This document shows, in pieces, positions 4,160 to 43,708 of a DNA stretch of 64,000 bases (positions are counted from its first letter, which is position 1; each line of letters starts with the position of its first letter). The stretch lies in contig DATALJ010000108.1 in assembly GCA_036261135.1 (NCBI GenBank), positions 15,971-79,970 on the forward strand. The letters are read 5' to 3'. Below the pieces are notes generated by a model. It was not told the origin of the DNA, made no database searches, and worked only from the letters and a program-made list of their open reading frames with translations. This DNA comes from Bacteroidales bacterium (GTDB lineage Bacteria > Bacteroidota > Bacteroidia > Bacteroidales > JAAUTT01). The translations under genes and the position numbers were made by a program.

Positions 4160-4192
4160 ATCTGGTTTTATATGAATTTAATCGTTCTTCCG

Positions 4193-4450: not shown

Positions 4451-4473
4451 AATCGTATGTTTTAAGGTTTATA

Positions 4474-4629: not shown

Positions 4630-4845
4630 AATTGTTGAGTTTTAATGATTAAACAAATGCTAATACTTTGATTACTGTTTTACTTTAAGTAGAACTTAAT
4701 GACGGGTAAAATCAATAATTTACATTACAAAGGTGGAACTCTTTCAAATAATGTGCGTTACAAAACTTTTATTATTAATTATAACATTCACACATTTCAC
4801 AACAAATGACGCGTTTTATTAAACAAAATGATTTTTCAAGAGATT

Positions 4846-4985: not shown

Positions 4986-5030
4986 ACTTATTACTTACCA
5001 TCTAAAGCAGGTGGCAATTCATATCAGCTA

Positions 5031-5441
5031 CTATCCTTCCTTCGGTAAGGCGCTCATGTCCATGTACACGACCTCCCATTGATGGCCGTCCAGATCGGCA
5101 AAGCTGTGTCCGTAAATCCAGCCATGATCTTCAGGATCGCGGTAAATGAGTCCTCCTGCATTCTGTGCTTTCCGGACGAGTTCATCTACCTCGGACCTCG
5201 ATGCTGCATCAATTGCAATTATAACTTCGGTACTATCCTTCGCGCTACTAATGGGTTTGTTCGTAAATGTTTTAAAAAATGGCTCAGCCAGAAGCATGGC
5301 AAAAATATTATTGCCAATAACCATGCAAGCGCCATTCTCGTCGGTAAACTGGGGATTAAAGCTGAATCCCAGTTGTGTAAAGAAATCCATTGATTTTTGA
5401 AGATCCTTAACCGGAAGGTTTATAAAGATTTGTGTTGCCAT
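5031..5441 (-). CDS. VOC (glyoxalase/bleomycin-resistance/dioxygenase) family protein
   Basis: 136 aa with MATQIFINLPVKDLQKSMDFFTQLGF...DPEDHGWIYGHSFADLDGHQWEVVYMD, a typical VOC fold signature. Confidence 0.8.
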   Translation of the reverse strand: MATQIFINLPVKDLQKSMDFFTQLGFSFNPQFTDENGACMVIGNNIFAMLLAEPFFKTFTNKPISSAKDSTEVIIAIDAASRSEVDELVRKAQNAGGLIYRDPEDHGWIYGHSFADLDGHQWEVVYMDMSALPKEG

Positions 5442-5600
5442 AATATAGGGTTTAGGTGTTTACCTATATACAATTTTGGTTACCGTTTGTTAAAAGCATA
5501 CAATAAGTAACCGTTTAAATCAAATAGATAATTATAATTCAATCAATTACATTAATGAAAAAAAATAGTAAAAAAAAGAAACACTGTAAGAAATAATACG

Positions 5601-5625
5601 TATTTTTGCATACCGCTTGTGCGGT
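5601..5625 (+). promoter_or_regulatory. candidate -7 box (TATTTTTG) abutting a palindromic operator ACCGCTTGTGCGGT upstream of tetR
   Basis: TATTTTTG at 5601-5608 fits the Bacteroides-type TAnnTTTG -7 consensus. The 14-bp palindrome at 5612-5625 recurs at 6267-6280. Confidence 0.45.
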
Positions 5626-19134: not shown

Positions 19135-19162
19135 ATGATGAAAGACATACAACTTTCATCAT
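19135..19162 (-). terminator. stem-loop downstream of fabH
   Basis: ATGATGAAAG-8nt-CTTTCATCAT is a perfect 10-bp stem. No clear T-run. Confidence 0.45.
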
Positions 19163-19192
19163 CCAATTAAGTTCAATCTTTTTTAGTTGCGA

Positions 19193-20188
19193 TCAGGAAT
19201 TATAGGCCCATTTCAGGTACATGGATCCCCACGTAAAACCACCACCAAATGCTGAGATAATGAGGTTATCTCCTTTCTTCAGGCTCTTTTCGAGTTCCCA
19301 CATACACAAAGGAATGGTTGCAGCGGTTGTATTACCATAGCGCTGAATATTGATCATTACCTTGTCTTTACTTATTCCCATGCGGCGTCCAACAGCATCT
19401 ATTATCCTGAGGTTGGCCTGGTGTGGTATAAACCATGCAATATCATCGGGCTGTAGATTATTCTTCTCCATCATAGCTACAGACACATCGGCCATTTTAG
19501 TTACAGCCACTTTAAATACAGCCTGGCCATCCTGGTAAATATAATGTTCCTTGGCATCAACTGTTTGATGTGAGGCAGGTTTATACGATCCGCCCGCTTT
19601 TAAATTTAGCAATTCTTTGGCATAACCATCAATATGAAGTAAGCTGTCCATTACGCCAATTTCCTCGGTTGTAGGCTCAAGCATTAATGCAACCGCAGCA
19701 TCGCCAAACAAAACACAGGTTGTACGATCGGTATAATCCGTAATTGCCGACATTTTATCGCCAGCAACTAGTATAACTTTCTTATGATTTCCGCTTTCTA
19801 TAAATTGAATAGCAGTTTGCAACGAAAACAAGAATCCACAACAGGCAGCGCTTACGTCAAATCCATAGGCATTCTTAATTCCTGCTTTATGTGCTATAAG
19901 GCATGCAGTGGAAGGAAACATCATGTCGGGCGTAATGGTGCCGACTACGACTAATTCAACTTCTTCGGGCTTGGTTCCGGTTTTAGCTAGTAATTTTTTT
20001 ACGGCTTCTGCTCCCATGTCTGAAGTAGCGAGACCTTCACCTTTTAAAATTCTTCTTTCCTTAATACCTACACGCTGCATGATCCATTCATCGGATGTTT
20101 CAACCATACGGCTTAATTCTTCGTTGGTTAAAACATAGTCAGGCAGAAAGGCTTCTATACCTGTGATGGCTGCTCTAATTTTACTCAT
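19193..20188 (-). CDS. fabH: beta-ketoacyl-ACP synthase III
   Basis: 331 aa with [46 protein letters not shown], active-site context DVSAACCGF and C-terminal HQANLRI ... GGGFTWGS. Confidence 0.9.
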
Positions 20189-20232: not shown

Positions 20233-20985
20233 TTATCTTTTGGTTCGCACAAGCGACAAAACTCCGTTTATAAACGTTAAAGGATGCACAGGATTGCCTG
20301 GCACATATAAATCGATGGTATGTTTATCGAGAAATGACCGGTTAATTGCCGGACTATCAACGAATATGCCACCACTAATAGCATCTGTTCCCGCTAAAAT
20401 AATTATTTTGGGAGAAGGGATTGCGTTATACGTCATTTCTAGTGCGTCAGCCATATTGTGAGAGATAGGACCGGTAATTACAATCCCATCGGCGTGGCGG
20501 GGCGATGCCACAAACTCAATCCCAAAGCGGCCCATATCGAAGTTTACATTACTACATGCGTTCAACTCCCATTCGCAGCTGTTATCGCCGGCAGCCGAAA
20601 CCTGACGGAGCTTAAGCGATCCTTTAAAGAAGGAATAAATCTCCTTGCGTATCTTGTCTGGATTAACCTCTATGGGGGCATCCACGTTTTCACCGAGTAT
20701 TAAACGGTGCCTATCGTTGGTTGATAGCTTGTAATCCTTTGTAAACTTTATTTTCTCCGGGAATTCACGGGCACATTCCCCACAGAACGTGCATTTACCC
20801 AAATCTATCCGTACAGGATTTGAAAGAATAGCATCTGTGGGGCAAAGCGCCACTAATGACAGTTCATCAACCTTTACATCGGTAATTACAGGCCTTCCCC
20901 TGAAAATACCAGGAACCTGCGCTTTGGTAACGTCTGGTATGTATTGTTTACCCTGATGGTATAATATTTTAATATTTTCCAGCAT
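20233..20985 (-). CDS. ferredoxin-like domain fused to a NuoB/HycG-like small subunit, proximal-cluster ligands degenerate
   Basis: The C-terminal half, GRFGIEFVASPRHADGIVITGP...PSPKIIILAGTDAISGG...YVPGNPVHP, matches the NuoB/HycG pattern. However D, D and N sit where cysteines are expected. The N-terminus carries LCPTDAI and CTFCGECAREFP. Confidence 0.75.
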   Translation of the reverse strand: MLENIKILYHQGKQYIPDVTKAQVPGIFRGRPVITDVKVDELSLVALCPTDAILSNPVRIDLGKCTFCGECAREFPEKIKFTKDYKLSTNDRHRLILGENVDAPIEVNPDKIRKEIYSFFKGSLKLRQVSAAGDNSCEWELNACSNVNFDMGRFGIEFVASPRHADGIVITGPISHNMADALEMTYNAIPSPKIIILAGTDAISGGIFVDSPAINRSFLDKHTIDLYVPGNPVHPLTFINGVLSLVRTKR

Positions 20986-21027
20986 TTTTTTTCTTCATTT
21001 TCAAATTTCAAATTACCTCAATTCAAA

Positions 21028-22527
21028 TTATAGATCGTGGCCACAATAAGAAAGATTGAAGCTCTTGTTACATATAGGAAAATCGGAGATTTCATTGTTT
21101 CGTACCGCCAAGGCTAACGCCAACCAGTTATGGAATGAAGGATCCTTAATTTTATATGTAGCGAGCTCGCCTGCATTATCGGTTATAGCGGCATGGCAGA
21201 TCTCACCGCGCCATCCTTCGGTTAATGAGATGGCAAATGTATTTGGCATTAAGCGCATATCAGCTTTAGACGGTGTTACCTGCTCAGAGACCTGATTCAA
21301 CAATTGTTTTATATAACCAAGCGATTGCTGAACCTCCTGTTTTCGTATCTGCGTGCGGGAATATACATCGCCATGATGTTTAATAATAGGTTCATGATTG
21401 AACTCACTGTACAAGCCGTATGGATGCGACTTACGAATATCCCGTTCCAGCGCATTCATACGCGCTGCCATACCCACCGTACCGATCGATTCCAATTGCT
21501 CTTTGGACAATGCTCCTGTACGTTCCAAGCGTGAAAGTGCGCTGGGTAAGGTCGAAGTCTGCTGGTACATTTCGTAGAATTCGGGTTCGTAAGCGTTTAA
21601 AATTTCTATAAACCGATTGGCCAGTTCTGCTGTATACGGATATTGGTTTCGTCCCGGGCGAATAAGTCCCTTGGCTAAACGATTACCACACCACTCCTGA
21701 AAATAGTTAATAATAGGCGTTCGCAATCGTCCAAACACGGAGCTTCCCAGTTGGTAAGCTATATCGGTGCTTATTGCACTTAAATCGCCGGTATGAATGG
21801 CAACCCGTTCGATTTCCTGCGCCAAAGTCCTTGCAAATAATATATCGCGACCGGCTTCAAATCCCGAAAGGCTCTCCCACAAATAGGCAAAGGCAGTGGT
21901 ATGCCCTACAACACTGTCGCCAGCAATATTTTCCGCTAACGTAGTGCGCTGCAACAACTTCTTTTTATTCAGGAATAAGTGTTCTACCCCCCTATGCTGA
22001 AATCCGAGTTGTATTTCAAGGTGCAAAATCTGCTCTCCGTTGCATACAAAACGGAAATGCCCAGGCTCTATAACACCTGCATGAACCGGACCTACTCCTA
22101 CTTCGTGCAATTCCTCACTTTCAATACCAAAGAAAGGGTAATTGCCAATTACCTGGCTTTGATCAGCCCTGTTGAATGGGTATTTTACAGGTTTTAGCCA
22201 TGGGTGGCCAACAAAGTTAACACCAAAGTTTTCGTGTATCTCACGTTCAAATTTCTCAAACGAGAGATGCCTGGTTGTAAAAGACTCCAATGAGGCTTTA
22301 GGATCCACAATGCACGAAGAAACCATGATATTGTGCTGCTGATCGTCTGCAATACAGCAAATAAGCTTTATGCCATTATCGGTACGATACCCAAAATAGG
22401 TAGCACAATGCCTTTCCTCATGTTTATCAATCAACCCTGTATTCAGTGCAAAGAATGTATTATAATCCAGTTCCGGAATACTGCTTACCGGTGTTGTTCC
22501 CTGGTTTTGTATAGTGATATATTCCAT
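21028..22527 (-). CDS. fused NuoC-NuoD/HycE(HyfG)-like large subunit lacking NiFe ligands
   Basis: GPVHAGVIEPGHFRF...LEIQLGFQHRGVEH is the conserved group-4 hydrogenase/NuoD core. The CGxC site reads NIAGDSVVGH and the C-terminus reads SFNLSYCGHDL. There is no CxxC anywhere in the 499 aa. Confidence 0.8.
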   Translation of the reverse strand: MEYITIQNQGTTPVSSIPELDYNTFFALNTGLIDKHEERHCATYFGYRTDNGIKLICCIADDQQHNIMVSSCIVDPKASLESFTTRHLSFEKFEREIHENFGVNFVGHPWLKPVKYPFNRADQSQVIGNYPFFGIESEELHEVGVGPVHAGVIEPGHFRFVCNGEQILHLEIQLGFQHRGVEHLFLNKKKLLQRTTLAENIAGDSVVGHTTAFAYLWESLSGFEAGRDILFARTLAQEIERVAIHTGDLSAISTDIAYQLGSSVFGRLRTPIINYFQEWCGNRLAKGLIRPGRNQYPYTAELANRFIEILNAYEPEFYEMYQQTSTLPSALSRLERTGALSKEQLESIGTVGMAARMNALERDIRKSHPYGLYSEFNHEPIIKHHGDVYSRTQIRKQEVQQSLGYIKQLLNQVSEQVTPSKADMRLMPNTFAISLTEGWRGEICHAAITDNAGELATYKIKDPSFHNWLALALAVRNNEISDFPICNKSFNLSYCGHDL

Positions 22528-22530
22528 AAA

Positions 22531-23958
22531 CTACTTAGGTAAAATGTTTATAGCATCGTATATAAGGCTGTTAAAAGCGGCAGGCGGATTTAAACCAAGC
22601 CACATAGCCGCAAACAACAGTAAATACTGGGTTAACGATTCCCATGGATTTATTTTAGGCACACTTCCTTCGTCAAATCCGACAGGTGGTGTGAACAGAA
22701 TCTTGAAAATGTTCTTACCAAAGGCCCAGATGATAATGGTAAGCAGCAAAAGCACCAGCAGCAAGACGATGATAAAATGACCTTCGAAAAGCGACCGGAA
22801 AATAAGAAATTCACTCACAAACATTCCTGAAGGAGGCATCGCGGTTGCGCTTATAAAACCAATTAATAGCACAATGGCGCCAGCAGGGTTATATTTAAAG
22901 TAGTTGCCTACGTGAAATATGCTCTTATTTTGAAAGACACGATACAACTGGTTGAACTGAAAGAACAGACTCGATTTAACAAAGGTATGAAGTACAATAT
23001 GCAGTAATGCCGCATAATAACCAATACCCCCTGCCGCAATTCCAAGCATTACAATACCCATGTGCTCAATGCCCGAGTAAGCCAGCATGCGTTTGATGTT
23101 CATCACCTTGGTCATGTAAACCGTAGCTACGAAAATAGAAAGTATAGCAGAAATAAGGATTACAAGGTTAGCCCAATGATGCAGCGGGGTATGGGCAACA
23201 ACTGCGTAGAAACGGAAGAACCCAACAAACCCCATATTCATAAGCACACTGGCAAGCAATGCTCCTACAGGTGCTGGCGCTGTATCTTTAGCATCGATAC
23301 CAGCCGTATACATAGGAACAAGACCCAACTTAGCTGTAAAACCAGTAAAAATAAACAGAAATGCCAGCCGCAACCAGAATGGATTCAGTTTGCTGCTATT
23401 GGCCATTAAGTTGGCGAACGAAAGATCATCGGACCCGGCATGCTGCAGCGATAGGCTTAGAAACAATATCCCAATAAAAATAAAGGTAACACTGATAGCA
23501 CAAATAAATACGTATTTCCAAACTCCCTCCAATGCTAACTTATTACGGTGATGATATATCAGAGCCGAAGCACTAAGCGTTGTTAGTTCGGTAAATATCC
23601 AGATTACCGCTATATGATTGGATAAGTAAGCTGCAGTAATAGATGTAATAAGAATGATAATGGATGAGAAATATATAGCCCTGGATTGAGGCGTTTCCTT
23701 ATGGGTTTCGATATATATATAACTATGAATAAGTGCAGGAATACTTACAATACTAAGCGTTATAAGAAGCAATAAGCCCAAAGAATCGATAGTGAAGTAT
23801 TCCAGCTCGGTGGCCTTGTGATGGTAGCAGCTGTAAATGGTAAATCCCAATTGCAATGCAGCAAAAGCCCCAATAAGTATATTATTCAAAAGCTTGTTCC
23901 GGTTAACGAAAAGCAAACCGCCAATTACAAATGCCCCTATTAAATAAATTGCAGTCAT
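22531..23958 (-). CDS. NuoN/HyfF-like antiporter-type membrane subunit
   Basis: 475 aa, about 14 TM helices, Mrp/NuoLMN-type proton-conducting membrane transporter pattern (...AKLGLVPMYTAGIDAKDTAPAPVGALLASVLMN...). Confidence 0.8.
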   Translation of the reverse strand: MTAIYLIGAFVIGGLLFVNRNKLLNNILIGAFAALQLGFTIYSCYHHKATELEYFTIDSLGLLLLITLSIVSIPALIHSYIYIETHKETPQSRAIYFSSIIILITSITAAYLSNHIAVIWIFTELTTLSASALIYHHRNKLALEGVWKYVFICAISVTFIFIGILFLSLSLQHAGSDDLSFANLMANSSKLNPFWLRLAFLFIFTGFTAKLGLVPMYTAGIDAKDTAPAPVGALLASVLMNMGFVGFFRFYAVVAHTPLHHWANLVILISAILSIFVATVYMTKVMNIKRMLAYSGIEHMGIVMLGIAAGGIGYYAALLHIVLHTFVKSSLFFQFNQLYRVFQNKSIFHVGNYFKYNPAGAIVLLIGFISATAMPPSGMFVSEFLIFRSLFEGHFIIVLLLVLLLLTIIIWAFGKNIFKILFTPPVGFDEGSVPKINPWESLTQYLLLFAAMWLGLNPPAAFNSLIYDAINILPK

Positions 23959-23973
23959 TATCTGTATTGTATA

Positions 23974-24606
23974 TTAATAATCTTTTAAATTGCTCAACTG
24001 GTCCACATCTACATCCTTAAACACGTCGCCAATCTTTTGTAAGAAGATACCCAGAATTAATACGCTGGCAAAGATGTCAAGCATTACGCCAAGGTTCACC
24101 AGCATGGGCATCTCATTACCTACAGCCAGCGAAAGTACAAACACGCCGTTTTCTATAATCAGGTAACCAATTACGTGTGTAATAATCTTTCTGCGTGATG
24201 CAATAAGGTACAATCCTGTAAACAGCGTAGAAAGCGCTACAATAAAGAATATCTTGTCCAGTTTGGTATCCTTAATGGAATTGGCGAGCAAAATCGTCAC
24301 AATAATAATAACCGTGGTAATTACCAGCGAAAGAAAATTTGGGAGGTAAGGCTCAGCCTCACGTGTAATATTATTCCGTTTCAACAGGTAACCCAAAAAG
24401 ATAGGGACAGCAAGCGCTTTGAACACAACCGTTTCCAAAAGTATGAGCACCAGGTTCAATGTATTGATCTCGTGCAGTTGAAGAAATGTAACTCCAAAGA
24501 GAATAAAGCCCTGTGCGGTTAGTATGTTGACATAGGTAATGATCCTGTTGGCAATTGAAAGGTACAACAGCGTAATAATAAATGTAATGAGCAAAACGTT
24601 TATCAT
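23974..24606 (-). CDS. HyfE-like small membrane subunit (NuoK-related)
   Basis: 210 aa, six to seven TM helices. It sits between the NuoH-like and NuoN-like genes, as hyfE does. Confidence 0.65.
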   Translation of the reverse strand: MINVLLITFIITLLYLSIANRIITYVNILTAQGFILFGVTFLQLHEINTLNLVLILLETVVFKALAVPIFLGYLLKRNNITREAEPYLPNFLSLVITTVIIIVTILLANSIKDTKLDKIFFIVALSTLFTGLYLIASRRKIITHVIGYLIIENGVFVLSLAVGNEMPMLVNLGVMLDIFASVLILGIFLQKIGDVFKDVDVDQLSNLKDY

Positions 24607-24618
24607 TTCTTCAATTTT

Positions 24619-25524
24619 TTAAATGAATTTTCCCAAAACCAACAGTACTCCGAAAAATATAAGCAGGCTCACCGACGAAAGCGCAAATATGAACTGTGCA
24701 TTATGGCTCATGCGGAAACGGGCCATAAATGATTCGATTAAACCTACTGATATGGCAAACAGCACCTGCGCCCCGGCGAATATGGCCAATGAAACAGGTA
24801 ACGAAAGTCCGCCAATAAAGAGATTCGTAATAATTGCACCATACATGGCAAATTTCAGATAGCCGGCAGACAGAATCAGTCCCAGATCGAAACCGCTATT
24901 ATCAAGTACAATCACCTCGTGTACCATAGTAAGCTCGAGATGTGTTTTTGGGTCGTCTATTGGCATTCGACTATTTTCGATCATCGCAATCATCACCAAC
25001 ACGAAGGTTGCAAGAGCACCCAACGCGTAAGTTATGTAACTACCGAGATGTAAAGCCGCAAATATGTCGTGAAAAGAAGTATAGCCAGTTAACAAAGCAA
25101 ATGAGCCCATAAGAATGAAGAATGCAGGCTCAGCAAACATCGAATACAATGCTTCGCGGCTGGCGCCCATGCCTTCGAAACTACTTCCCGTATCGAGTGC
25201 GGAAATGATAGTAAAAAACTTACCCAGGGCCAGTAAATAGGCGAAAAAGATGAAATCTCCGTCGAAACTGATCAGTCCTTTTTCACTTCCAAAGGGTACA
25301 GCGCATAAGGCCATTGCAACAGAAGAGAAATAAACAACCGGAGCCAGCTTAAACACAAAACTGGTGGTTTCGCTATATACAGCACCTTTCTTGAACAAAC
25401 GAACCACATCTTTCAAGGGCTGGAAAATGCCAGGGCCTTTCCTTCCCGCAGTAATGCTCTTGGTTCGGATAATTATTCCTGTGAAAAACAGGCTGGCTAT
25501 AAGAATTAATAATAAGCTCAGCAT
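24619..25524 (-). CDS. NuoH/HycD(HyfC)-like membrane subunit
   Basis: 301 aa. The N-terminus IIRTKSITAGRKGPGIFQPLKDVVRLFKKG matches the NuoH/HycD signature (GRxGPxxxQPxxDxxKLxxK). Confidence 0.8.
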   Translation of the reverse strand: MLSLLLILIASLFFTGIIIRTKSITAGRKGPGIFQPLKDVVRLFKKGAVYSETTSFVFKLAPVVYFSSVAMALCAVPFGSEKGLISFDGDFIFFAYLLALGKFFTIISALDTGSSFEGMGASREALYSMFAEPAFFILMGSFALLTGYTSFHDIFAALHLGSYITYALGALATFVLVMIAMIENSRMPIDDPKTHLELTMVHEVIVLDNSGFDLGLILSAGYLKFAMYGAIITNLFIGGLSLPVSLAIFAGAQVLFAISVGLIESFMARFRMSHNAQFIFALSSVSLLIFFGVLLVLGKFI

Positions 25525-25525
25525 C

Positions 25526-27553
25526 TTATATATGATTTAAAAAGTTCAAAAATACGGTTATCTTTTCGATCAGTAAGGGAACCACTATTACAGCGCCTAT
25601 AAACAATATCCCATAGAGGATGTAAATTTGAAGATTCCCATTTTGCAGGAAGGCAAAACGATCGATCGCTGTTTTTATCCATAATAGGGGTTTATCAATA
25701 AATATACGCTCAATTTTATCGTATGGGTGCGTTTCGTAATGTTTCGACGAGGGAAACACCTCTGTAATTTCAATTTCTTTTTTACCTATGTCTAAAACAG
25801 GCTTCACCAGTTTAGTATAGCTGCGCACAAATGAATTAGCTGTGTACTGTAGCTTGGTATCGGTAGTTTCATAAGCGCAACCCCAGGTAGGTTGTACTTC
25901 TACATCTCTGTTTTTTGTGGCAAGCTTACGTAATCCATATATTATAAGAATGAGTACAAGAAAGCCCGCACTGTACCAGTTAATGTCGAATAGTGAATCG
26001 ATAGCACCAACCTTGATCAGGTTCAGATTAAACACCCCCTCCTGAATAAAAAGACGGACGGGCTGTTGCAAGATCGTAATAAACAAAGTGGGGAACAATC
26101 CTATCAAAACAATCAATGTACCTATCAGATATAATGGGAAAAGCTGCCAGAATGTAACCTCCTTGATATGTTTATGCTCCTTGTGGCGCATGTTACCTAA
26201 AAATACAATTCCAAATGCCTTGGTAAAACAGAGTAAAGCAAGTCCTCCGATCATCACAAGCCCCAGAATGGCGAAAATAATTACAATTAACGATACCAGA
26301 CCGGCACTAAACAGCCAGTTGTAAATTCCACCATATATCAAAAATTCCGACACGAAGCCATTCAAAGGAGGCAATCCGCAAATAGCAAGAGCAGCAAGCA
26401 AAAACAAGAATGCCGTTTGGGGCATCTTCTTCACAAAGCCACCCATTCGCTCAATGTTCATGGAATGGATCTTCTGGTAAATATTTCCTGTACTAAAGAA
26501 CAGAAGCGACTTAAACAACGAATGATTCAGCGTATGCAGCAAAGCACCGGAAAATCCGAGTATAGCCATCCATTTATTGGCTTCGCCGATGCCTAAACAT
26601 CCAATACCTATTCCAATGCCAATTATTCCAATGTTTTCGATACTGTGATAAGCCAGTAACCTTTTCAAATTGTGCTGTATAATAGCTAACATCACTCCAT
26701 AAACGCCCGAAATAAGCGATACAAATAATATAATAAAACCAATACTGGTATAATCCGCTTTTATAAGCAATAACATGCGAAGAATACCATAAATTCCTAT
26801 CTTAATGATAACTCCAGACATCATACCCGATACATGCGAAGGAGCAGCAGGGTGTGCATAAGGCAGCCATGTATGAAAAGGAACAAATCCAGCCTTTATA
26901 GCAAAGCCAATAAAGAAACACAAGAAAAGAACTGTTCCTGCGAGTAGCGTCTGGCTCGAAGAAAAGGCTGTTATTGCAGAGAACTGATAACTACCCGTTT
27001 TATATGCAACAAATATGAAAGCCAGCATAAGGAACACAATAGAAATATGCGATTGCACCAGGTAATTGATACCTGCCTTTAATGTGTCCTCCTTGTAATG
27101 CTCAAAAATGACCAATACAAATGCCGAAACAGCCATTATTTCCCAGCAAAGAAGAAATGCCATCCCGTTTTGTACTCCACAAATGCTGATTAGCCCGGCA
27201 TGAGTAAGTATAAAAGCAATACAATGCAGTGTAATATTGTTTTTTTGGTTAATATACTGCCGCATATAATGAAAACCGTATATTCCACCGGTTATCATCG
27301 TAAAGTTAATAGTCAAAATAAACCATGCGGACAAGGCATCAACGGAAACAGGCACTTGGCCGAACGAAGTGGCACCTGTTAATACAGTTTCGAAGGTATG
27401 TCCCATCAAAGCCTGCGCTGCAACAAAAGAACTTAACAAAGCATTTGTAATTACAGCAACAAGCGCAATAATCCCCTTGCCTTTGGTTCCGGCAAACAGG
27501 ATAGCGCCTATAGCTATAAAAACGATGATTAAAAAAACACTAATCAATGCCAT
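25526..27553 (-). CDS. NuoL/HyfB-like antiporter-type membrane subunit (copy 2)
   Basis: 675 aa with TWLPYAHPAAPSHVSGMMSGVIIKIGIYGILR and ...HSLFKSLLFFSTG. C-terminal extension containing TWGCAY. Confidence 0.85.
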   Translation of the reverse strand: MALISVFLIIVFIAIGAILFAGTKGKGIIALVAVITNALLSSFVAAQALMGHTFETVLTGATSFGQVPVSVDALSAWFILTINFTMITGGIYGFHYMRQYINQKNNITLHCIAFILTHAGLISICGVQNGMAFLLCWEIMAVSAFVLVIFEHYKEDTLKAGINYLVQSHISIVFLMLAFIFVAYKTGSYQFSAITAFSSSQTLLAGTVLFLCFFIGFAIKAGFVPFHTWLPYAHPAAPSHVSGMMSGVIIKIGIYGILRMLLLIKADYTSIGFIILFVSLISGVYGVMLAIIQHNLKRLLAYHSIENIGIIGIGIGIGCLGIGEANKWMAILGFSGALLHTLNHSLFKSLLFFSTGNIYQKIHSMNIERMGGFVKKMPQTAFLFLLAALAICGLPPLNGFVSEFLIYGGIYNWLFSAGLVSLIVIIFAILGLVMIGGLALLCFTKAFGIVFLGNMRHKEHKHIKEVTFWQLFPLYLIGTLIVLIGLFPTLFITILQQPVRLFIQEGVFNLNLIKVGAIDSLFDINWYSAGFLVLILIIYGLRKLATKNRDVEVQPTWGCAYETTDTKLQYTANSFVRSYTKLVKPVLDIGKKEIEITEVFPSSKHYETHPYDKIERIFIDKPLLWIKTAIDRFAFLQNGNLQIYILYGILFIGAVIVVPLLIEKITVFLNFLNHI

Positions 27554-29568
27554 AAATTCAGTATAGTTCCAATGAATACAAAGAGCACAAACAAGATTCC
27601 ATAAAGGACATAAGCCTGTACCTTACCGTTTTGTACAAATTTAAAAAGGTCTATAAAATATTGAAGTCGATCCGTTACAGGATTGATCATGCGTTGTTCA
27701 AAAAAATCTAGATAATGAGAAGAATATCTGCGGGTTTTCGGAAAAATCTCATCGCTTTTCAGCTCGGTGTATGACTTTTTCTCAATCAATACAAAATGAA
27801 ACAACTTGCCCAGCGACTTGGAGAAAGATTTCCCGGTATATTGAATTTTAGACGTAGGCGCAACATAGCCACAGCCCCATGTTTGCCCATAATTAATTTC
27901 CTTAGCCACAGAAACACGCGAACGCAACAGGTATATCAATCCAACAAAAGCCAGGAACAACAGAGAGTATAAACTAATCTGCTGCATTACAGACGCATAG
28001 TGAAAGAAAGCTGGATTAGCCACCATATTTAAATTGGGGAATATGCCTCCAACTACCGTATTCATCAACTGAATGAAATAACCGGGAAGAAAAGCTACCA
28101 ACAGCATAAACCCAACAACAACATACTGAGGGACCAGCATAATCTTAGAAACTTCTTCCGGTTCGTGGTGTAAATGTTGGCGTTGGGTGCCAAGAAAAAT
28201 GGTACCAAAGGTTTTCGTAAAAGTAAGTATTGAGATACCACCTATAATGCTTAATCCGGCAAAGGACAGCACCATCAGGGTTATTTCTGCGATGTTCGAC
28301 GACTCAATGCCATTCAACAACCCGCAATAGATAATGAATTCAGAAATAAAACCATTAAATGGGGGAATTCCTCCAATGGCAATAGCGCCAAGCAGGAATA
28401 AGACTGCTGTTTGGGGCATTTTCTTTGCCAATCCGCCCAGTTTATCCATATCGCGTGTATGTGTTTGCTGGTACACAGCGCCAACAGAGAAAAACAACAG
28501 CGACTTAAACAGCGAATGGTTGAGTACATGCAACAAAGCGCCACCAAATCCCAGGAAAACTAGGAGATTATTGCTTCGGCCCAAGCCTATTAAACCAAGT
28601 CCCATTCCTATTCCAATAATACCAATATTTTCGATGGTACAATACGCCAACATCCTTTTAAAATCGCGATGTACCGCAGCGTTCATTATACCAAACAAGC
28701 CGGTTAATACGGATACCGAAAGAACTATCTCTCCAAGTAATATAAAATCTGACTTTACAAAGGTTATAACACGCAAAATACCGTAAATACCCATTTTTAC
28801 AATTACCCCCGACATTACCCCAGATACATGCGAAGGTGCAGCGGGATGTGCATGAGGCAACCATGTGTGTAACCCTATAAACCCGGCTTTTAAACCAAAA
28901 CCTGCAAAAAACAGAAGAAAAAGCCAGATATTGGCATTAGTGCCAAAAAACGTTCCTATTCCTTTAAAATCGAATGTTCCGGTTTGAAAATATACCCAGA
29001 TAAAAGCAATGGTAAGAAACACAACACTCAGGTGCATTTGGACCATATAGTTTATGCCTGCTTTCAATACCTTGGGGTCGGTATGCTCAAACAATACAAG
29101 AAACATAGATGATATGGACATGATTTCCCAAGCTACCAGAAAGGCGATGCTGTTTTGGATCATGCAAACCCAAAGCATAGAAGACTGGAAAAGCAAAAAG
29201 AAAATCCAATGTACTGTTAATATGGACCGCAAAGGTTTATACGCTTTTAAATAGCCTATACCATAAAGAATGCCAGCGGTAGAGATTAGGTTTATAATCA
29301 GAATGAACCATGCAGAGAGTGGATCAATTCGAAAAGGTATCACACCTAAAAAAGTGCCTCCGGCAACGTTCACTTCAATTCCATTGGAAATGATGCCCTG
29401 GATCGCAATATAACTTGTTATCAGTGCGTTTAAACCGGCAAATACAAAAGTTGAAATGGCTTTTACACGTTCAGGCAGTAGTATTACCAACGTAATACCT
29501 GCCACCAATACCCCAAAATGCAATAATAAAAGAAAGCTATTCAATTCAAAACCTTCAAATCCCATCAT
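27544..29568 (-). CDS. NuoL/HyfB-like antiporter-type membrane subunit (copy 1)
   Basis: 674 aa, a paralogue of the next gene (TWLPHAHPAAPSHVSGVMSGVIVKMGIYGILR; C-terminal TWGCGY). Overlaps the next gene by 10 nt. Confidence 0.85.
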   Translation of the reverse strand: MMGFEGFELNSFLLLLHFGVLVAGITLVILLPERVKAISTFVFAGLNALITSYIAIQGIISNGIEVNVAGGTFLGVIPFRIDPLSAWFILIINLISTAGILYGIGYLKAYKPLRSILTVHWIFFLLFQSSMLWVCMIQNSIAFLVAWEIMSISSMFLVLFEHTDPKVLKAGINYMVQMHLSVVFLTIAFIWVYFQTGTFDFKGIGTFFGTNANIWLFLLFFAGFGLKAGFIGLHTWLPHAHPAAPSHVSGVMSGVIVKMGIYGILRVITFVKSDFILLGEIVLSVSVLTGLFGIMNAAVHRDFKRMLAYCTIENIGIIGIGMGLGLIGLGRSNNLLVFLGFGGALLHVLNHSLFKSLLFFSVGAVYQQTHTRDMDKLGGLAKKMPQTAVLFLLGAIAIGGIPPFNGFISEFIIYCGLLNGIESSNIAEITLMVLSFAGLSIIGGISILTFTKTFGTIFLGTQRQHLHHEPEEVSKIMLVPQYVVVGFMLLVAFLPGYFIQLMNTVVGGIFPNLNMVANPAFFHYASVMQQISLYSLLFLAFVGLIYLLRSRVSVAKEINYGQTWGCGYVAPTSKIQYTGKSFSKSLGKLFHFVLIEKKSYTELKSDEIFPKTRRYSSHYLDFFEQRMINPVTDRLQYFIDLFKFVQNGKVQAYVLYGILFVLFVFIGTILNLWH

Positions 29569-29778
29569 TCCAAAAATTATATCTTCAACGCTCGGTTTAA
29601 AAAATGCAAATTAAAAGTAAAATTTACGACAATAATCCCAAAAACGCGAAATAATTTAAAATATTACAATATTATATAATAAAACCGCTATTTTCAATAT
29701 CATATTCTTTGAATTTTATTACATAAATTTATAATATGTTAAAATATTTTATATTTTCGCAATACATTTTTTGACTTT

Positions 29779-39176: not shown

Positions 39177-39316
39177 GAAATCTGTTTGAATTACGGAATT
39201 GAGATTGCATGTAATCTTCGTCGATTAACATGTAGTTTTTGTGTGTTATTCTGCATTGCAGGACATTCACCTTTTCTATGCCTATTCATTACTCCTTATT
39301 TATAATTCAAAAACAC

Positions 39317-42300
39317 ATGATTGAACGTATTATTCATTTTTCGATAAAGAATAAATTTATTGTTGGCTTGTTTGTTGTGGCTTTAATTAGCTGGGGGACT
39401 TATTCGCTTACGCGACTGCCTATTGATGCCATACCGGATATTACCAACAACCAGATACAGGTTATTTCGCTGGCTCCCTCGCTGGCAACACAAGAAATAG
39501 AAAGCTTTATAACTGCTCCAATTGAAGTGGCTGTAGCAAATATCCCCGATATTATTGAGCTTCGGTCCATCTCGCGGCTTGGATTGTCGGTTGTAACGGT
39601 AGTTTTTAAAGATGGTGTAGATGTATACTGGGCGAGGCAACAGCTTAGTGAACGCCTGAAAGAAGCCGAAGAAGCAATTCCCGAAGGCCTCGCTAGAATA
39701 GAGCTAGCTCCCGTTTCTACTGGTTTGGGTGAAATTTATCAATACCGGCTGGCGGTAAAAAAGGGATTTGAAGAGAAATACTCGGCAATGGACCTGCGCA
39801 CCTTTCAGGACTGGATAGTTCGCCGTGAAATGTTAGGTACACCAGGCATAGCTGATATTAATAGTTATGGAGGCTATGTAAAACAGTACGAAGTAGCCGT
39901 TAACCCCGAAAGACTGAGAGGGATGGACCTTACACTAAATGATATTTTCGAAGCCCTCGAAAAAAATAATGAAAATACAGGTAGTGCCTATATCGACAAG
40001 AAGCCCACTGCCTATTTCATTCGAGGCATCGGCCTGGTGAAGAATCTCGGAGACATTGAGAAAATAGTGGTAAAATCCAATGCCTCTGGCCTTCCTGTTT
40101 TAATACGCGATGTTGCAACCGTTCAATTCGGCAATGCTACAAGATATGGAGCACTGGTTATTGATACCACCGAAGCTGTAGGCGGTGTTGTAATGATGCT
40201 GAAAGGCGCCAACGCCCACGAAGTAATAAAAAACGTTGAAAAAAGAATAGAGTCCATCCAGAAATCGCTTCCAGAGGGGGTTATCATAGAACCATTCCTC
40301 AACCGGTCAGACCTGGTTGACCGTTCCATTGGTACAGTTACACGCAACTTAATAGAAGGTGCTTTAATTGTCATTTTCATATTGGTATTAATGCTTGGAA
40401 ACTTTAGGGCCGGGTTAGTGGTAGCATCGGTTATTCCACTTTCCATGCTATTTGCCATATCCATGATGCACATCTTCGGTGTTTCAGGTAACCTGATGAG
40501 TTTAGGAGCAATCGACTTTGGGTTGATAGTGGACGGAGCGGTCATCATTGTGGAAAGTGTTGTTCACCGCATATTTATGAGCAAGCACCACCATCCCGGC
40601 GTTATAAGGCTCACTCAGCAACAAATGGATGAGAATGTATTTGAATCGGCCCGGCGCATGATGAGTTCTGCAACCTTCGGACAAATAATCATTCTTATTG
40701 TATATCTGCCCATTATGGCCCTGGTAGGTATCGAAGGTAAGATGTTCAGGCCTATGGCGCAGGTTGTTGTTTTTGCATTGATAGGAGCAGCTATCCTTTC
40801 ACTTACCTATGTACCCATGGCTTCTGCATTATTCCTGAGCAAAAGCACGGAGCATAAAAGAAACTTCTCGGATAAGCTGATGGATGGGCTGCACAAGGCC
40901 TTCAATCCTCTTATTTTATTTGCTCTTCGCAGAAAGTTGCTTGTATCTGTTTCTGTAATAGTATTATTCATCCTCAGCTTATTTACATTTAGCAGGTTGG
41001 GCGGCGAATTCATACCGCAACTCGAAGAGGGCGACCTGGCAGCGGGCGTTATGACACTGCAGGGTGGTTCTCTTTCTTACACCATCGAAACCATAGAAAA
41101 GGCCAATAAGATACTGCTCGATAATTTCCCGGAAATAGAACATGCAGTTTGTAAAATCGGCGCCAGCGAAATACCTACCGACCCCACCCCAATGGAGACT
41201 GGCGATTACATTATTACGCTCAAGGATAAGCGTGAATGGACATCGGCTAAAACCCGCGAGGAACTTGTAGAAAAGATGGAAGAAAAACTCCTGGTGCTTG
41301 CTGGCGTTAAGTTTGAGTTCCAGCAACCCATACAAATGCGCTTCAATGAACTACTTTCGGGATCGAAACAGGATATTGCAGTTAAAATTTATGGCGACGA
41401 CCTCAATACGCTGGCCGAAAAAGCCGCAGAAGTTGAAAAATTGATACTTAACATTGAAGGTGTAGAGGACATTAATGTGGAAAAAGTAACCGGTCTGGCT
41501 CAGGTTCAGATCGATTATAACCGCGAAAAGCTGGCGCAGTATGGCTTATCTATTGATGATGTAAACCGGGTATTACGTGCCGCCTTTGCCGGAAGCCAGG
41601 CAGGTGTAGTTTTTGAGGAAGAGAAACGCTTTGCCCTTTTGGTGCGGCTTGATAAAGATTACCGCCAAAACCTGGAAGACATTAAAAATCTCACCGTTTC
41701 AGCGCCTAACAGCGTGCAGGTGCCATTTGAGCAGATCGCTTCTATCGAAATTAAGTCGGGTCCTGCCCAGGTGTCGCGCGAAGATACCAAACGCCGTATT
41801 ACCGTTGGGTTCAACGTACGAAACCGCGACATGCAAAGCGTTATAAAGGAAGTAAGCAGCCTTATTGATACACGCATTAATCTTCCAACGGGTTATTATG
41901 TTACCTACGGCGGACAATTCCAAAACCTTGAAGCTGCGAAAAATCGTCTCGCCATTGCTGTGCCGGTTGCGTTATTGCTCATCTTTGTTCTGTTGTTCTT
42001 CACATTTCATTCGGTAAAACAAACCTTGCTAATTTATACCGCAGTTCCGATGTCGGCTATAGGTGGTGTATTCGCCTTATGGATGAGAGATATGAACTTT
42101 TCAATATCTGCCGGTGTCGGTTTCATAGCATTATTCGGGGTTGCCGTACTCAATGGTATCGTACTTATATCTGAATTCAACCGTTTAGAAAAAGAAGGAG
42201 TTGCCGACATCACAGAGCGCGTACTTAAAGGACTTAAAACCCGCCTTCGACCTGTAATTATGACCGCAGGCGTTGCATCGTTAGGGTTTCTACCCATGGC

Positions 42301-43708
42301 TTTATCTACATCGGCGGGAGCCGAAGTGCAAAAACCGTTGGCAACCGTAGTTATTGGAGGGCTCATCTCCTCTACATTCCTTACGCTTGTTGTTTTGCCC
42401 ATATTTTACATTTTCTTTTCCACACATCATTTGCGACTTTCATTTATGCGGAAAAATTTAAGATCATTGTCAATTGTTGGTATCATTTCAACGTTAACGT
42501 TATACTCCAACACATTAAATGCACAGGAAACCAGGAAAATTGACCTTACCCAGGCCATACAAATGGCCTTGGACAGCAATTTAGCGGTACGCTCGGCATC
42601 CTATGCTGTAGATGCACAAAAGGCGTTGAAAGGAGCCTCATGGGACATTCCCAAAACCTCAATTGAAGCGGAATACGGGCAAATCAATTCGTACACAAAG
42701 GATAACAGCTTTACCATTTCGCAGACCTTTGCTTTCCCATCGGTGTATATAAACCAGAATAAACGGGCAAAAGCCAACATTAAAAGCAGTGAATGGGAAC
42801 TCAAAGCAAAACAGCTCGATATTGCTACGCAGGTAAAGCAGATATACTGGCAGTTAGCTTATTTATATTCCAAACAACACTTATATTCGTGGCAGGATAG
42901 CATGTACGATGGCCTCCTCAGGGCCGCTAAACTTAAGTCGGAGCTGGGAGAAAGTAATAAATTGGAGGTAATCACAGCTCGTTCGCAAAGCATGGAAGTT
43001 AAAAACCAATTACAGCAGGTAATATCAGATATTACCACATACAAACAAAAGCTGCAGCTGGCTTTAAATACAGATGCTCCTCTATCCATAATCGACACGG
43101 TATTACGACATGCAGGCGTGCATGAACCTCATGATACCGTAGCCTTAGCTTCAAACCCATCATTGGCGTATATGGAGCAACAAACGGCCATTGCGCATTT
43201 CGAGAAAAAGATAGAACGCAGCCAAATGATGCCGGACCTCACCATCGGATATTTCAGCCAAACCATGCAAGGCACACAGGAAGTAAATAGCATACCCCGT
43301 ACATTCAATACTGGTGATCGATTTACAGGCATCCAGGCTGGTATAGGCATTCCGTTGTGGTTTCGTTCGTACACATCGCGTTCTAAAGCAGCCCGGATTA
43401 AGGAGCAGGTAGCTCAAACCAATGCAAAATATTATGCAATGGAGCTTTCAGGAAATTACCGTGAATTACTTAATGAATATTCCAAGTATAACAGCAGCCT
43501 TGCATATTTCGAAAATCAGGCACTTCCTGAAGCCAACCTGATTATTGAGCAGATAACACGTATGTACAAAGCAGGCGCTATCGATTATTCCGACTATATC
43601 CTGAGTTTTGGCAGAGCCTTGGATATCAGACAGAATTACCTCGAAACGCTGAACGCATACAACCAAACCCTCATCAATATTGAATTTATTAACGGCAAAA
43701 TTTATTAA
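39317..43708 (+). CDS. CusA/CzcA-family heavy-metal efflux RND permease fused in frame to a TolC/CzcC-like outer-membrane factor
   Basis: Start at MIERIIHFSIKNKF (ATG 39317). The CzcA-like body covers 1043 codons. The frame then continues without a stop into MRKNLRSLSIVGIISTLTLYSNTLNAQ-ETRKIDLTQAIQMALDSNLAVR... (ATG 42446), a 420-aa OMF-like domain. Confidence 0.8.
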   Translation: MIERIIHFSIKNKFIVGLFVVALISWGTYSLTRLPIDAIPDITNNQIQVISLAPSLATQEIESFITAPIEVAVANIPDIIELRSISRLGLSVVTVVFKDGVDVYWARQQLSERLKEAEEAIPEGLARIELAPVSTGLGEIYQYRLAVKKGFEEKYSAMDLRTFQDWIVRREMLGTPGIADINSYGGYVKQYEVAVNPERLRGMDLTLNDIFEALEKNNENTGSAYIDKKPTAYFIRGIGLVKNLGDIEKIVVKSNASGLPVLIRDVATVQFGNATRYGALVIDTTEAVGGVVMMLKGANAHEVIKNVEKRIESIQKSLPEGVIIEPFLNRSDLVDRSIGTVTRNLIEGALIVIFILVLMLGNFRAGLVVASVIPLSMLFAISMMHIFGVSGNLMSLGAIDFGLIVDGAVIIVESVVHRIFMSKHHHPGVIRLTQQQMDENVFESARRMMSSATFGQIIILIVYLPIMALVGIEGKMFRPMAQVVVFALIGAAILSLTYVPMASALFLSKSTEHKRNFSDKLMDGLHKAFNPLILFALRRKLLVSVSVIVLFILSLFTFSRLGGEFIPQLEEGDLAAGVMTLQGGSLSYTIETIEKANKILLDNFPEIEHAVCKIGASEIPTDPTPMETGDYIITLKDKREWTSAKTREELVEKMEEKLLVLAGVKFEFQQPIQMRFNELLSGSKQDIAVKIYGDDLNTLAEKAAEVEKLILNIEGVEDINVEKVTGLAQVQIDYNREKLAQYGLSIDDVNRVLRAAFAGSQAGVVFEEEKRFALLVRLDKDYRQNLEDIKNLTVSAPNSVQVPFEQIASIEIKSGPAQVSREDTKRRITVGFNVRNRDMQSVIKEVSSLIDTRINLPTGYYVTYGGQFQNLEAAKNRLAIAVPVALLLIFVLLFFTFHSVKQTLLIYTAVPMSAIGGVFALWMRDMNFSISAGVGFIALFGVAVLNGIVLISEFNRLEKEGVADITERVLKGLKTRLRPVIMTAGVASLGFLPMALSTSAGAEVQKPLATVVIGGLISSTFLTLVVLPIFYIFFSTHHLRLSFMRKNLRSLSIVGIISTLTLYSNTLNAQETRKIDLTQAIQMALDSNLAVRSASYAVDAQKALKGASWDIPKTSIEAEYGQINSYTKDNSFTISQTFAFPSVYINQNKRAKANIKSSEWELKAKQLDIATQVKQIYWQLAYLYSKQHLYSWQDSMYDGLLRAAKLKSELGESNKLEVITARSQSMEVKNQLQQVISDITTYKQKLQLALNTDAPLSIIDTVLRHAGVHEPHDTVALASNPSLAYMEQQTAIAHFEKKIERSQMMPDLTIGYFSQTMQGTQEVNSIPRTFNTGDRFTGIQAGIGIPLWFRSYTSRSKAARIKEQVAQTNAKYYAMELSGNYRELLNEYSKYNSSLAYFENQALPEANLIIEQITRMYKAGAIDYSDYILSFGRALDIRQNYLETLNAYNQTLINIEFINGKIY

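Follow-up and report, generated by a model that had tools for sequence, protein, structure and literature searches.

A 64,000-nucleotide stretch of a Bacteroidales genome (GenBank assembly GCA_036261135.1, contig DATALJ010000108.1, forward-strand positions 15,971 to 79,970), referred to here as the window, carries on its minus strand an operon of seven genes, ehrB1, ehrB2, ehrH, ehrE, ehrF, ehrCD and ehrIB (Table 1), whose products resemble subunits of the group 4 [NiFe] hydrogenases and of complex I. The operon occupies 20233-29568 and almost certainly encodes an energy-converting hydrogenase-related (Ehr) complex, neither a hydrogenase nor an NADH dehydrogenase. The original prediction, made from the letters of the window, had described seven co-directional genes packed from a 10-nt overlap to a 42-nt gap, and an open reading frame (ORF) check of the window returns the same coordinates, with successive junctions of -10, 1, 12, 15, 3 and 42 nt. 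Pfam likewise agrees with the subunit identities then proposed: two HyfB-like subunits, NuoH/HycD-, HyfE- and HyfF-like subunits, a NuoC-NuoD fusion and a ferredoxin-NuoB fusion. The likeness to E. coli hyfBCDEFGHI in gene content and order, which had also been pointed out, holds in part: B, C, E, F, G and H/I have similar counterparts, but a second HyfB-like subunit stands where Hyf has HyfD.

Reports of Ehr complexes since 2013 cover many phyla and include M. tuberculosis, where Rv0082-Rv0087 is an example, Nitrospira, ammonia-oxidising archaea, Margulisbacteria and the candidate phyla radiation; to our knowledge no function is known for any of them, and most authors assume a role in electron transfer. 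The class, introduced in Marreiros 2013 and defined here as later papers relay it (PMC6349859, PMC10284858, PMC7304191), is that of group 4-like large subunits devoid of the NiFe-binding cysteines, and its members are described as NiFe-incapable and unassigned in function (PMC6349859, PMC7304191, PMC10284858, PMC10432482), as is the case for M. tuberculosis Rv0081-0087 (PMC6728331). HydDB was deliberately trained to exclude Ehr (PMC5037454). The best NCBIfam models for the seven products are hydrogenase 4 subunits B, E and F together with NuoD, NuoB and NuoH, all of which score below their curated cutoffs (HyfB 485 bits, for ehrB1, against 667; HyfE 67 against 136; HyfF 197-213 against 511-610; NuoD 144 against 360; NuoB 81 against 116), so that no product qualifies as a Hyf, Hyc or Nuo equivalog.

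Table 1. Genes of the ehr operon, motifs at its former and retained metal sites, and upstream region (positions in the window)
Feature	Description	Position	Strand	Evidence
ehrB1	HyfB/NuoL-like antiporter-like subunit, 674 aa	27544..29568	-	Pfam Proton_antipo_M 6e-53
ehrB2	Second HyfB-like antiporter-like subunit, 675 aa	25526..27553	-	Pfam Proton_antipo_M 3e-52; 10-nt overlap with ehrB1
ehrH	HycD/HyfC/NuoH-like subunit, 301 aa	24619..25524	-	Pfam NADHdh 4e-36
ehrE	HyfE-like small membrane subunit, 210 aa, C-terminal half NuoK-like	23974..24606	-	Pfam Oxidored_q2, weak
ehrF	HyfF/NuoN-like antiporter-like subunit, 475 aa	22531..23958	-	Pfam Proton_antipo_M 1e-41
ehrCD	NuoC-NuoD/HycE-like large-subunit fusion, 499 aa	21028..22527	-	Pfam Complex1_30kDa and Complex1_49kDa
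ehrIB	Half-ferredoxin (NuoI/HycF-like) and NuoB/HycG-like fusion, 250 aa	20233..20985	-	Pfam Oxidored_q6 1e-18; Fer4, weak
L1 region of ehrCD	A202-G-D204-S205-V-V-G-H209 in place of C-G-x-C-x-x-x-H	21901..21924	-	Alignment with HycE RVCGICGFAH and with MbhL
D462 of ehrCD	Ehr-specific aspartate beside conserved P463-S464	21142..21144	-	Present in 90% of Ehr representatives
L2 region of ehrCD	N-L-S493-Y-C495-G496-H-D-L(stop) in place of D-P-C-Y-S-C-T-D-R	21031..21057	-	Alignment with HycE and MbhL
First proximal-cluster motif of ehrIB	D134-N-S-C137-E138 in place of the first two cysteines (C-x-x-C-E)	20572..20586	-	Alignments
Remaining proximal-cluster motifs of ehrIB	D201 (GAC cysteine) to G230-N231-P-V-H234 (PGCP)	20284..20385	-	Alignments
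Retained [4Fe-4S] motif of ehrIB	C48-P49...C65-x-x-C68-x-x-C71, the sole one retained	20773..20844	-	Alignment with HycF/HyfH/NuoI
Upstream intergenic region	Probable promoter and 5' untranslated region	29569..29778	-	Own-promoter argument; promoter-like matches

Former metal sites of the large and small subunits

Ligand positions were mapped in three independent alignments that agree with one another: phmmer against the PDB, MAFFT with the E. coli proteins of the real hyf, hyc and nuo operons (HycE/HyfG/NuoCD and HycG/HyfI/NuoB), and MAFFT with Ehr relatives. The best PDB matches of ehrCD are MbhL of the Pyrococcus MBH (6cfw_L, 2e-28) and HycE (7z0s_E, 2e-27). In every alignment the four NiFe cysteines of HycE, C241, C244, C531 and C534, fall on A202, S205, S493 and G496, and the cysteines that ehrCD does possess (residues 41, 57, 58, 72, 162, 280, 444, 486 and 495) form no CxxC, in keeping with what had been read from the translation. 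The segment N-I-A202-G-D204-S205-V-V-G-H209 thus takes the place of R-V-C241-G-I-C244-G-F-A-H, leaving no R-x-C-G-x-C-x-x-x-H motif, and the C-terminus that of D-P-C531-Y-S-C534-T-D-R, leaving no D-P-C-x-x-C-x-x-H/R. The protein ends with GHDL, at the cleavage position of HycE, and has no C-terminal extension that an endopeptidase could remove. At the position of the quinone-site tyrosine of NuoD it has a glycine (A-G-D-S against E-Y-L-G in NuoCD and D-Y-I-S in Aquifex; D-Y-x-S in general). By these alignments, ehrCD cannot hold a NiFe site.

The replacement residues are themselves conserved. G203, D204 and H209 are invariant in the clade of the window, where A202 and S205 reach at least 90%; S493 and G496 are likewise invariant in the clade and occur in 95-96% of Ehr representatives. 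Of 102 diverse Ehr sequences, 93% have D204, where the nearest true hydrogenases have V or A, while D462, also clade-invariant, is S in the four nearest of these. Presumably D462 lies in the former cofactor cavity, as the known architecture of [NiFe] hydrogenases would place it. The second-sphere residues of the pocket, E154, H149, R440, P463-S464 and D498, are kept in the family. The family has thus retained the second sphere of the hydrogenase site, exchanged the first sphere for small residues and gained two aspartates. C495 was considered as a shifted NiFe ligand and rejected, being out of register and unconserved (C in 43, S in 28 and A in 7; n=80). The AlphaFold2 model of ehrCD (mean predicted local distance difference test score, pLDDT, of 71) was not used, as it is poor (pLDDT <50) exactly in the pocket-forming segments, residues 113-178 and 467-499.

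In the NuoC-like domain of ehrCD, H40, C41, C57 and C58 (22354-22410, minus strand) are invariant in the seven-gene Bacteroidales clade and could form a metal site or a disulfide particular to it. Other Ehr lack these residues, as do the six-gene relatives L090 and L091 described below, which have also lost the proximal cluster; a metal site tied to that loss was rejected on this ground.

The small subunit ehrIB, whose best PDB matches are MbhJ of MBH (2e-21) and HycG (1e-16), is 100% identical to HEX2934972.1 from a Bacteroidales metagenome-assembled genome (MAG), annotated 'NADH:ubiquinone oxidoreductase'. D134, C137, D201 and N231 stand where HycG, HyfI and NuoB have their C-x-x-C, G-A-C and P-G-C-P cysteines, so that the four-cysteine signature of the proximal [4Fe-4S] cluster, common to the small subunits of group 4 hydrogenases, is missing. 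Three of the four cysteines had been predicted to be lost and the N2-equivalent site to be degenerate, with a single Fe-S centre left; the family alignment carries this further. D134 is found in 78/78 family sequences, D201 in 77/78 (E in one), N231 in 77/78 and H234 in 78/78, but C137 only in 68/78, being T, A, V or N otherwise. C137 was therefore rejected as a remnant cluster ligand, and the N2-equivalent site is fully degenerate. The AlphaFold2 model of ehrIB (pLDDT 82.6, predicted template modelling score 0.84) has a C-terminal domain that superposes on MbhJ at 2.4 Å and also on NuoB homologues; the former CxxC loop (135-148), which would wrap the proximal cluster, has a pLDDT <50. From its residues, ehrIB cannot hold a proximal cluster.

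One cluster motif does persist. The N-terminal 115 residues of ehrIB form a ferredoxin part alignable with HycF/HyfH/NuoI, which lacks the first CxxCxxC and the second 'CP' (F75-P76 here) of these two-cluster proteins. It keeps C48, the 'CP' cysteine of the first motif, and C65-x-x-C68-x-x-C71, the second motif, and each of these four cysteines is conserved in 77-78 of the 78 family members. Within a two-cluster ferredoxin fold, such a set of cysteines accounts for exactly one [4Fe-4S] cluster. The retained cluster is probably of the N6b type, which adjoins N2 in the Thermus complex I structure; the argument below is independent of this assignment, since the chain is broken at N2 either way.

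Relatives and loss of the proximal cluster

An exhaustive HMMER search of 1.84 billion representatives returned 499 proteins at E <= 1e-30. About 100 of 110 full-length representatives share (A/S/C)-G-D-(S/T)...H and N-K-S-F-N-L-S-Y-(C/S/A)-G-x-D-L, whereas four (33-36% identity) have C-G-x-C and L-C-Y-S-C-T-D-R at the corresponding positions and are true hydrogenases. D204, D462, S493 and G496 each reach at least 85% in the NiFe-less set and differ in all four hydrogenases; some 60 other positions, E154, H149, R440, P463-S464 and D498 among them, are shared by the two. A neighbour-joining tree of the large subunits (Kimura distance, 100 bootstraps) places the window inside an Ehr clade with 83% bootstrap support, apart from the true hydrogenases. 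Published Ehr share with the window the (A/S/C)-G-D-(S/T) and N-L-S-Y-x-G-x-D-L motifs, the absence of both CxxC motifs and a core of HyfB, HyfC, HyfE, HyfF, large subunit and ferredoxin-NuoB small subunit. The window locus accordingly combines a group-4-homologous large subunit devoid of NiFe cysteines with antiporter-like, NuoH-like, large and small subunits encoded in one operon. The view that the locus is no canonical [NiFe] hydrogenase and belongs with Ehr is thereby borne out by the ligand losses, the Ehr signature and the position in the tree. The locus differs from published Ehr in its duplicated HyfB, which brings the operon to seven genes instead of six.

Operons were fetched around representatives at decreasing identity (L085-L091), and they divide by the state of the proximal cluster. 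In L085, L086, L087 and L088, with large-subunit identities to ehrCD of 42, 40, 36 and 33%, the proximal ligands are retained: G-G-C-x-x-C-E occurs in all four, and G-A-C and P-G-C-P in L085-L087 (L088 ends before these motifs). In L089, L090 and L091 (51, 46 and 46%) they are lost, the positions being occupied by D, then A/T/V, then D/E, then N/A, with no cysteine; the clade as a whole has D, a variable residue, D (or E) and N (or A). The operons of L085, L086 and L087 comprise six genes, HyfB being represented once, and those of L090 and L091 likewise comprise six, in typical Bacteroidota gene contexts; the same core gene set recurs in all five of these loci, whereas L088, a 2.3-kb contig, and L089 (4.8 kb) are too short to tell. 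Two further representatives, P0140 (a distant one) and P0004, yielded no gene context that could be used. The cluster is thus absent from the window, from 80 related genome loci described below and from L089-L091, and present in the other Ehr operons sampled. In the tree the sequences without the cluster come together in a single clade (97% bootstrap support) nested within the Ehr clade, and the cluster-retaining Ehr fall outside it.

Loss of the proximal cluster therefore defines a monophyletic Bacteroidota clade, which is a new point of this analysis. The literature searched, which did not include the founding paper (Marreiros 2013), makes no mention of such a loss in Ehr and holds no paper on Bacteroidales Ehr and none on the biochemistry of any Ehr. 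The likely order of events is a group 4 hydrogenase that lost NiFe and gained D204 and D462, becoming Ehr, then lost the proximal cluster in the Bacteroidota lineage and finally duplicated HyfB. The duplication is specific to the seven-gene form of Bacteroidales, relatives at 36-46% identity having a single HyfB gene. In both L090 (11396-12462) and L091 (9436-10514) the Ehr operon is followed, on its own strand, by a split pair of ChrA chromate-transporter genes and preceded by a gene for an RsmE-type methyltransferase, probably through shared ancestry of two related genomes and not through a functional link.

Conservation and gene neighbourhood

Over 8000 database sequences are close relatives of ehrCD, with identities of about 70%, and a scan of one genome per species yields at least 581 encoding loci, the best 80 of which were compared. 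These 80 are all from Bacteroidota, mostly Bacteroidales (Prolixibacteraceae, Paludibacter, Lentimicrobiaceae, Draconibacterium, Rikenellaceae and Salinivirgaceae among them), and every locus long enough to show it keeps the order B1-B2-H-E-F-CD-IB. The family, with thousands of homologues, is abundant in Bacteroidales, and the locus is not rare. Identities across Bacteroidales families are 64-72% for the large subunit, 65-75% for the small one and up to 88% for membrane subunits. Against L092, a 91%-identical relative, the ratio of non-synonymous to synonymous substitution rates (dN/dS; approximate values, since dS is about 1) is 0.047 for the large and 0.051 for the small subunit, 0.014 for ehrH and 0.03-0.05 for the other membrane subunits, compared with 0.018 and 0.053 for the neighbouring fabH and rsgA. 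The head subunits are under purifying selection and the operon is not decaying. The successive loss of two metal centres and one cluster might have suggested a decaying remnant of a hydrogenase operon whose head subunits are pseudo-proteins; this explanation is effectively refuted by the seven intact, syntenic ORFs in 80/80 genome loci, the high identity across families, the dN/dS of about 0.05 for both head subunits and the invariance of the replacement residues.

The operon is a self-contained unit. Among 656 flanking ORFs from the 80 loci, clustering found no conserved neighbour; the commonest family occurs in 8/80 loci and a divergent Crp/Fnr-type regulator in 6/80, so that conserved neighbours gave no functional clue. 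Pfam scans of the other ORFs of the window detected no hydrogenase, formate dehydrogenase (FDH) or carbon monoxide dehydrogenase component, and tblastn with E. coli HypA-E, HycI, HycH, HycB, HyfA and HyfJ and with NuoA/E/F/G/J found no match in the window and 88 related loci (1.53 Mb). The absence of hyp genes, of an endopeptidase, of formate or carbon monoxide dehydrogenase and of any other input module next to the operon, noted before, is thus upheld in the window. The maturation set of a hydrogenase (Hyp proteins, endopeptidase and cleavable extension) is missing from the window and the related loci, and in comparison with E. coli Hyf the window lacks HyfA, HyfJ, HyfR and FdhF, has no hyp or hycI nearby and encodes no cleavable extension. 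An FDH/NuoEF-type partner has been proposed for the Ehr of Margulisbacteria (PMC6349859), whereas none is present at the window locus.

These absences bear on the names under which the family is filed. Source names of homologues such as 'Ni,Fe-hydrogenase III large subunit', 'NADH dehydrogenase subunit' and 'NADH:ubiquinone oxidoreductase', together with the resemblance to hyfBCDEFGHI, would make the complex a Ni,Fe-hydrogenase 3/4 (formate hydrogenlyase) or an NADH:quinone oxidoreductase. Such an identity is refuted at the sequence level, with all four NiFe cysteines and three to four proximal-cluster cysteines gone, a glycine for the quinone-site tyrosine, no NuoA/E/F/G/J, FdhF, HycB or Hyp nearby, every NCBIfam score below cutoff and Ehr excluded from HydDB.

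A strong terminator with a 19-bp stem (30436-30396) closes the upstream tldD/pmbA pair, and the operon thus needs a promoter of its own; AT-rich promoter-like matches lie 5' of it at 29742-29668. A riboswitch or other RNA clue in this region was rejected, as an Rfam scan of the whole window at the gathering threshold gave no family match, there or elsewhere, and a tRNA scan of the window found none. On the 3' side, fabH (19193-20188, minus strand) begins 44 nt after ehrIB with no terminator in between, which had led to the suggestion that it is co-transcribed. The adjacency stands, but it recurs only in L092 and in 0/80 genome loci, so that fabH was rejected as part of the system and the link is a local accident of gene order. 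The hairpin predicted after fabH likewise exists (19135-19163), but it is AT-rich, has no T-run and is not called a terminator. The arrangement fabH-OMP-rsgA is common only to the 91%-identical relative.

Two related genomes carry additional membrane genes. In a Draconibacterium MAG (L060, 12398-17401) a membrane-only HyfB-HyfC-HyfE-HyfF set, 44-71% identical to the window proteins and devoid of a head, directly follows the seven-gene operon, and in L014 (7-2821, minus strand) part of another membrane-only paralogue set lies on the opposite strand.

Elsewhere in the window, a 1489-aa ORF (39239-43708, plus strand) joins an AcrB-type resistance-nodulation-division (RND) transporter (ACR_tran, residues 31-1060) to a TolC-like OEP domain (1302-1484) and is directly followed by an HlyD-type adaptor gene (43712-44899, plus strand); a single polypeptide of this kind is unusual and may be either a genuine fusion or an artefact of assembly or of a frameshift. 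A protein of the GGGtGRT family (PF14057, E 2e-196), a family of unknown function, is encoded at 62904-63908 (plus strand) and preceded by two ORFs with no Pfam match (61147-61941, minus strand; 62145-62891, plus strand). A haem-biosynthesis-like cluster at 48175-52227 (minus strand) comprises a ferrochelatase, a flavin amine-oxidase-type (protoporphyrinogen-oxidase-like) protein and a radical-SAM protein, adjoined by an MFS transporter and a TonB-dependent receptor. A crcB fluoride-channel gene is found at 59051-59521 (plus strand), with no fluoride riboswitch at the Rfam gathering threshold, and a region of about 1.8 kb (3786-5617) with a low GC content (0.37 against about 0.41 for the window) holds only short overlapping ORFs and no Rfam or tRNA match.

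Membrane arm and possible modes of action

The membrane arm looks fully competent, with its transport residues intact. Aligned with E. coli NuoL/M/N, HyfB/D/F and HycC, the three antiporter-like subunits keep the glutamate of transmembrane helix (TM) 5, the lysines of TM7 and TM8 (the latter Asn in ehrF, as in E. coli HyfF), the histidine of TM11 and the glutamate of TM12: E148, K227, K258, H351 and E410 in ehrB1, E138, K220, K251, H344 and E403 in ehrB2, and E124, K210, H324 and E383 in ehrF. The two HyfB-like subunits are 45% identical to each other. Their long C-termini both contain W-x-C-G-Y (W-G-C-G-Y), which was rejected as a special feature since E. coli HyfB and HycC share it. The HycD-type acidic residues of ehrH are kept (AEP, IENS, LEL and IES motifs), this being the most conserved subunit with 72-84% identity across loci, and the membrane acidic residues of ehrE align with those of HyfE.

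Comparison with characterized complexes delimits what such an arm could be attached to. E. coli hydrogenase 4 (formate hydrogenlyase-2, HyfA-J) and hydrogenase 3 (FHL-1, HycB-G; PDB 7Z0S) have the same charged residues in the membrane arm and the same E-P-G-H-F-R loop, but the window complex lacks their NiFe ligands and proximal cluster and has only half of HyfH. Complex I and the 11-subunit NDH-1 share with it homologues of NuoB, C, D, H, (I), K and L/M/N and an L-shaped architecture, the N2 cluster, quinone-site tyrosine, NuoA/J and N-module being absent here. MbhL and MbhJ of Pyrococcus MBH (PDB 6CFW) are the top PDB matches of the two head subunits, yet the window operon has no Mrp-type module such as MbhA-G or MbsA-G. 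The Pyrococcus sulfane reductase MBS/Mbx (PDB 6U8Y) is a precedent for a hydrogenase-derived head that still works after losing its NiFe site (PMC7684303), although MBS keeps three [4Fe-4S] clusters and performs catalysis at the proximal one, whereas the window complex is left with a single, non-proximal cluster. A working analogy is offered by the Mrp cation/proton antiporter, a redox-independent machine related to complex I and built on MrpA/MrpD and a NuoK-like subunit (PMC7419157), whose TM5 Glu, TM7 Lys and TM12 residues are shared by the antiporter-like subunits of the window; MrpA/MrpD-like subunits with conserved Glu/Lys pairs are indeed represented by three PF00361 proteins with all key residues. 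Mrp itself has neither a NuoH-like subunit nor a peripheral head, whereas the window operon encodes a NuoCD/NuoB head, and Pfam finds no match to the MrpB, E, F and G families among the seven products. By this analogy, the window complex would be Mrp-like in its working at best, and not a member of the Mrp family.

In complex I and the hydrogenases, the proximal cluster is the sole entry for electrons into the pocket and lies about 10 Å from the preceding cluster and about 12 Å from the pocket. In the window complex the membrane arm (three antiporter-like subunits, a NuoH/HycD-like and a HyfE-like subunit) would carry a complete Q-module-type head with neither NiFe nor an N2-type cluster, and the lone [4Fe-4S] cluster would have no next cluster to hand electrons on to. 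With the proximal cluster lost, the established structures imply that the remaining one is too isolated to feed the pocket, and with no feed to the pocket there would be no exergonic reaction to drive pumping. The complex should thus be unable to make or use H2, and electrons from ferredoxin should be unable to travel to the pocket by the usual chain of clusters. Two classes of function would then be left, secondary ion translocation coupled to a gradient and a gradient that drives some process in the head. We favour the former: the complex may be a gradient-coupled, redox-independent ion translocator that exchanges cations and protons in the manner of Mrp, a reading that we hold tentatively and place somewhat short of an even chance. 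The former cofactor cavities would be lined by carboxylates, D204, D462 and E154 in the large subunit and D134 and D201 in the small one, which might serve as a protonatable or ion-binding coupling element driving or gating the NuoH-like channel and the three antiporter-like subunits, while the lone cluster might be structural or act as a redox or O2 sensor. The original prediction had hedged between a redox-poor or redox-independent ion-translocating machine and an enzyme whose NuoD/NuoB pocket houses a new active site. That position fits all the evidence and is strengthened by ligand losses fixed in the clade, by purifying selection on the head and by the lack of conserved partners; the mechanism itself we infer. 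The Draconibacterium membrane-only set gives weak support, in that a membrane module seems not to need a redox head of its own.

Several points weigh against this translocator. No experiment has been reported on any Ehr (PMC10284858, PMC6728331, PMC10432482), the AlphaFold2 model of the large subunit is poor in the pocket region, the search for partners covered only the window and related loci, and MrpB/E/F/G are absent. E154, H149, R440, P463-S464 and D498, together with the two aspartates, seem too conserved for a mere structural cap, which leaves room for chemistry in the head, and the invariant [4Fe-4S] motif hints at a redox role. In addition, distant Ehr keep the proximal cluster alongside the same large-subunit pocket, and the ancestral function may well have been redox-linked. 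The tight conservation of pocket and cluster keeps two other explanations alive.

The first is a redox enzyme with a new active site, in which ferredoxin would pass electrons via the single cluster to a novel, non-cysteine metal centre, at D134/D201/N231/H234 (the former N2 site) or at D204/D462/S205/S493 (the former NiFe site), where an unnamed substrate would be reduced while the arm pumps. The invariant cluster motif speaks for such an enzyme, as do the invariance of D134, D201, N231 and H234, which is not random, the Ehr-specific and conserved D204 and D462, and the retention of hydrogenase proton-path residues such as E154. We nevertheless consider it unlikely: a set of Asp, Asn and His is no less apt to bind redox-inert ions than redox metals, the lack of a conserved cysteine at position 137 precludes an Fe-S cluster there, the gap from cluster to pocket amounts, with N2 gone, to two hops in the established geometry of complex I, and no genes for electron input or maturation are conserved nearby.

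The second is that the gradient drives non-redox chemistry in the head, for example a vectorial hydration of the CO2 type, as in NDH-1-Cup and DAB, at a carboxylate/His metal site. Antiporter-like modules that power non-redox reactions have precedents in NDH-1MS (PMC6981117) and DAB2 (PMC13144422), and the conserved pocket carboxylates and the strong purifying selection on the head would suit this role. It is the more improbable of the two, given that Pfam detects no carbonic-anhydrase-like or other catalytic domain in the seven products, that the operon has no conserved link to carbon-fixation or other pathway genes and that there is no candidate substrate.

A larger reading is conceivable but rather doubtful: that the clade represents the first machine of the complex I superfamily in which a complete Q-module head works in the absence of any electron-transfer chain, both former metallocentres having become carboxylate sites (D204/D462; D134/D201 with N231/H234) that would serve as binding sites for a proton, alkali cation or divalent metal and couple ion binding or a non-redox reaction to the arm. 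Were the head redox-free, the long-range coupling mechanism that it shares with complex I would not require redox chemistry, and a redox-independent translocator that retains its head would mean that conformational coupling can be separated from redox chemistry, a central question of bioenergetics.

Whatever the mechanism, the Bacteroidota clade is a natural knockout, in which an architecture under strong selection has lost the cluster that delivers electrons. Either the function of Ehr does not need that electron path, or the Bacteroidota clade has changed function. The loss of the cluster brings the problem of Ehr function into sharper focus and opens a non-redox answer to testing. For Bacteroidales themselves, metagenomic surveys should leave the thousands of database entries named 'Ni,Fe-hydrogenase III' or 'NADH dehydrogenase' out of their tallies of H2 metabolism and respiration.

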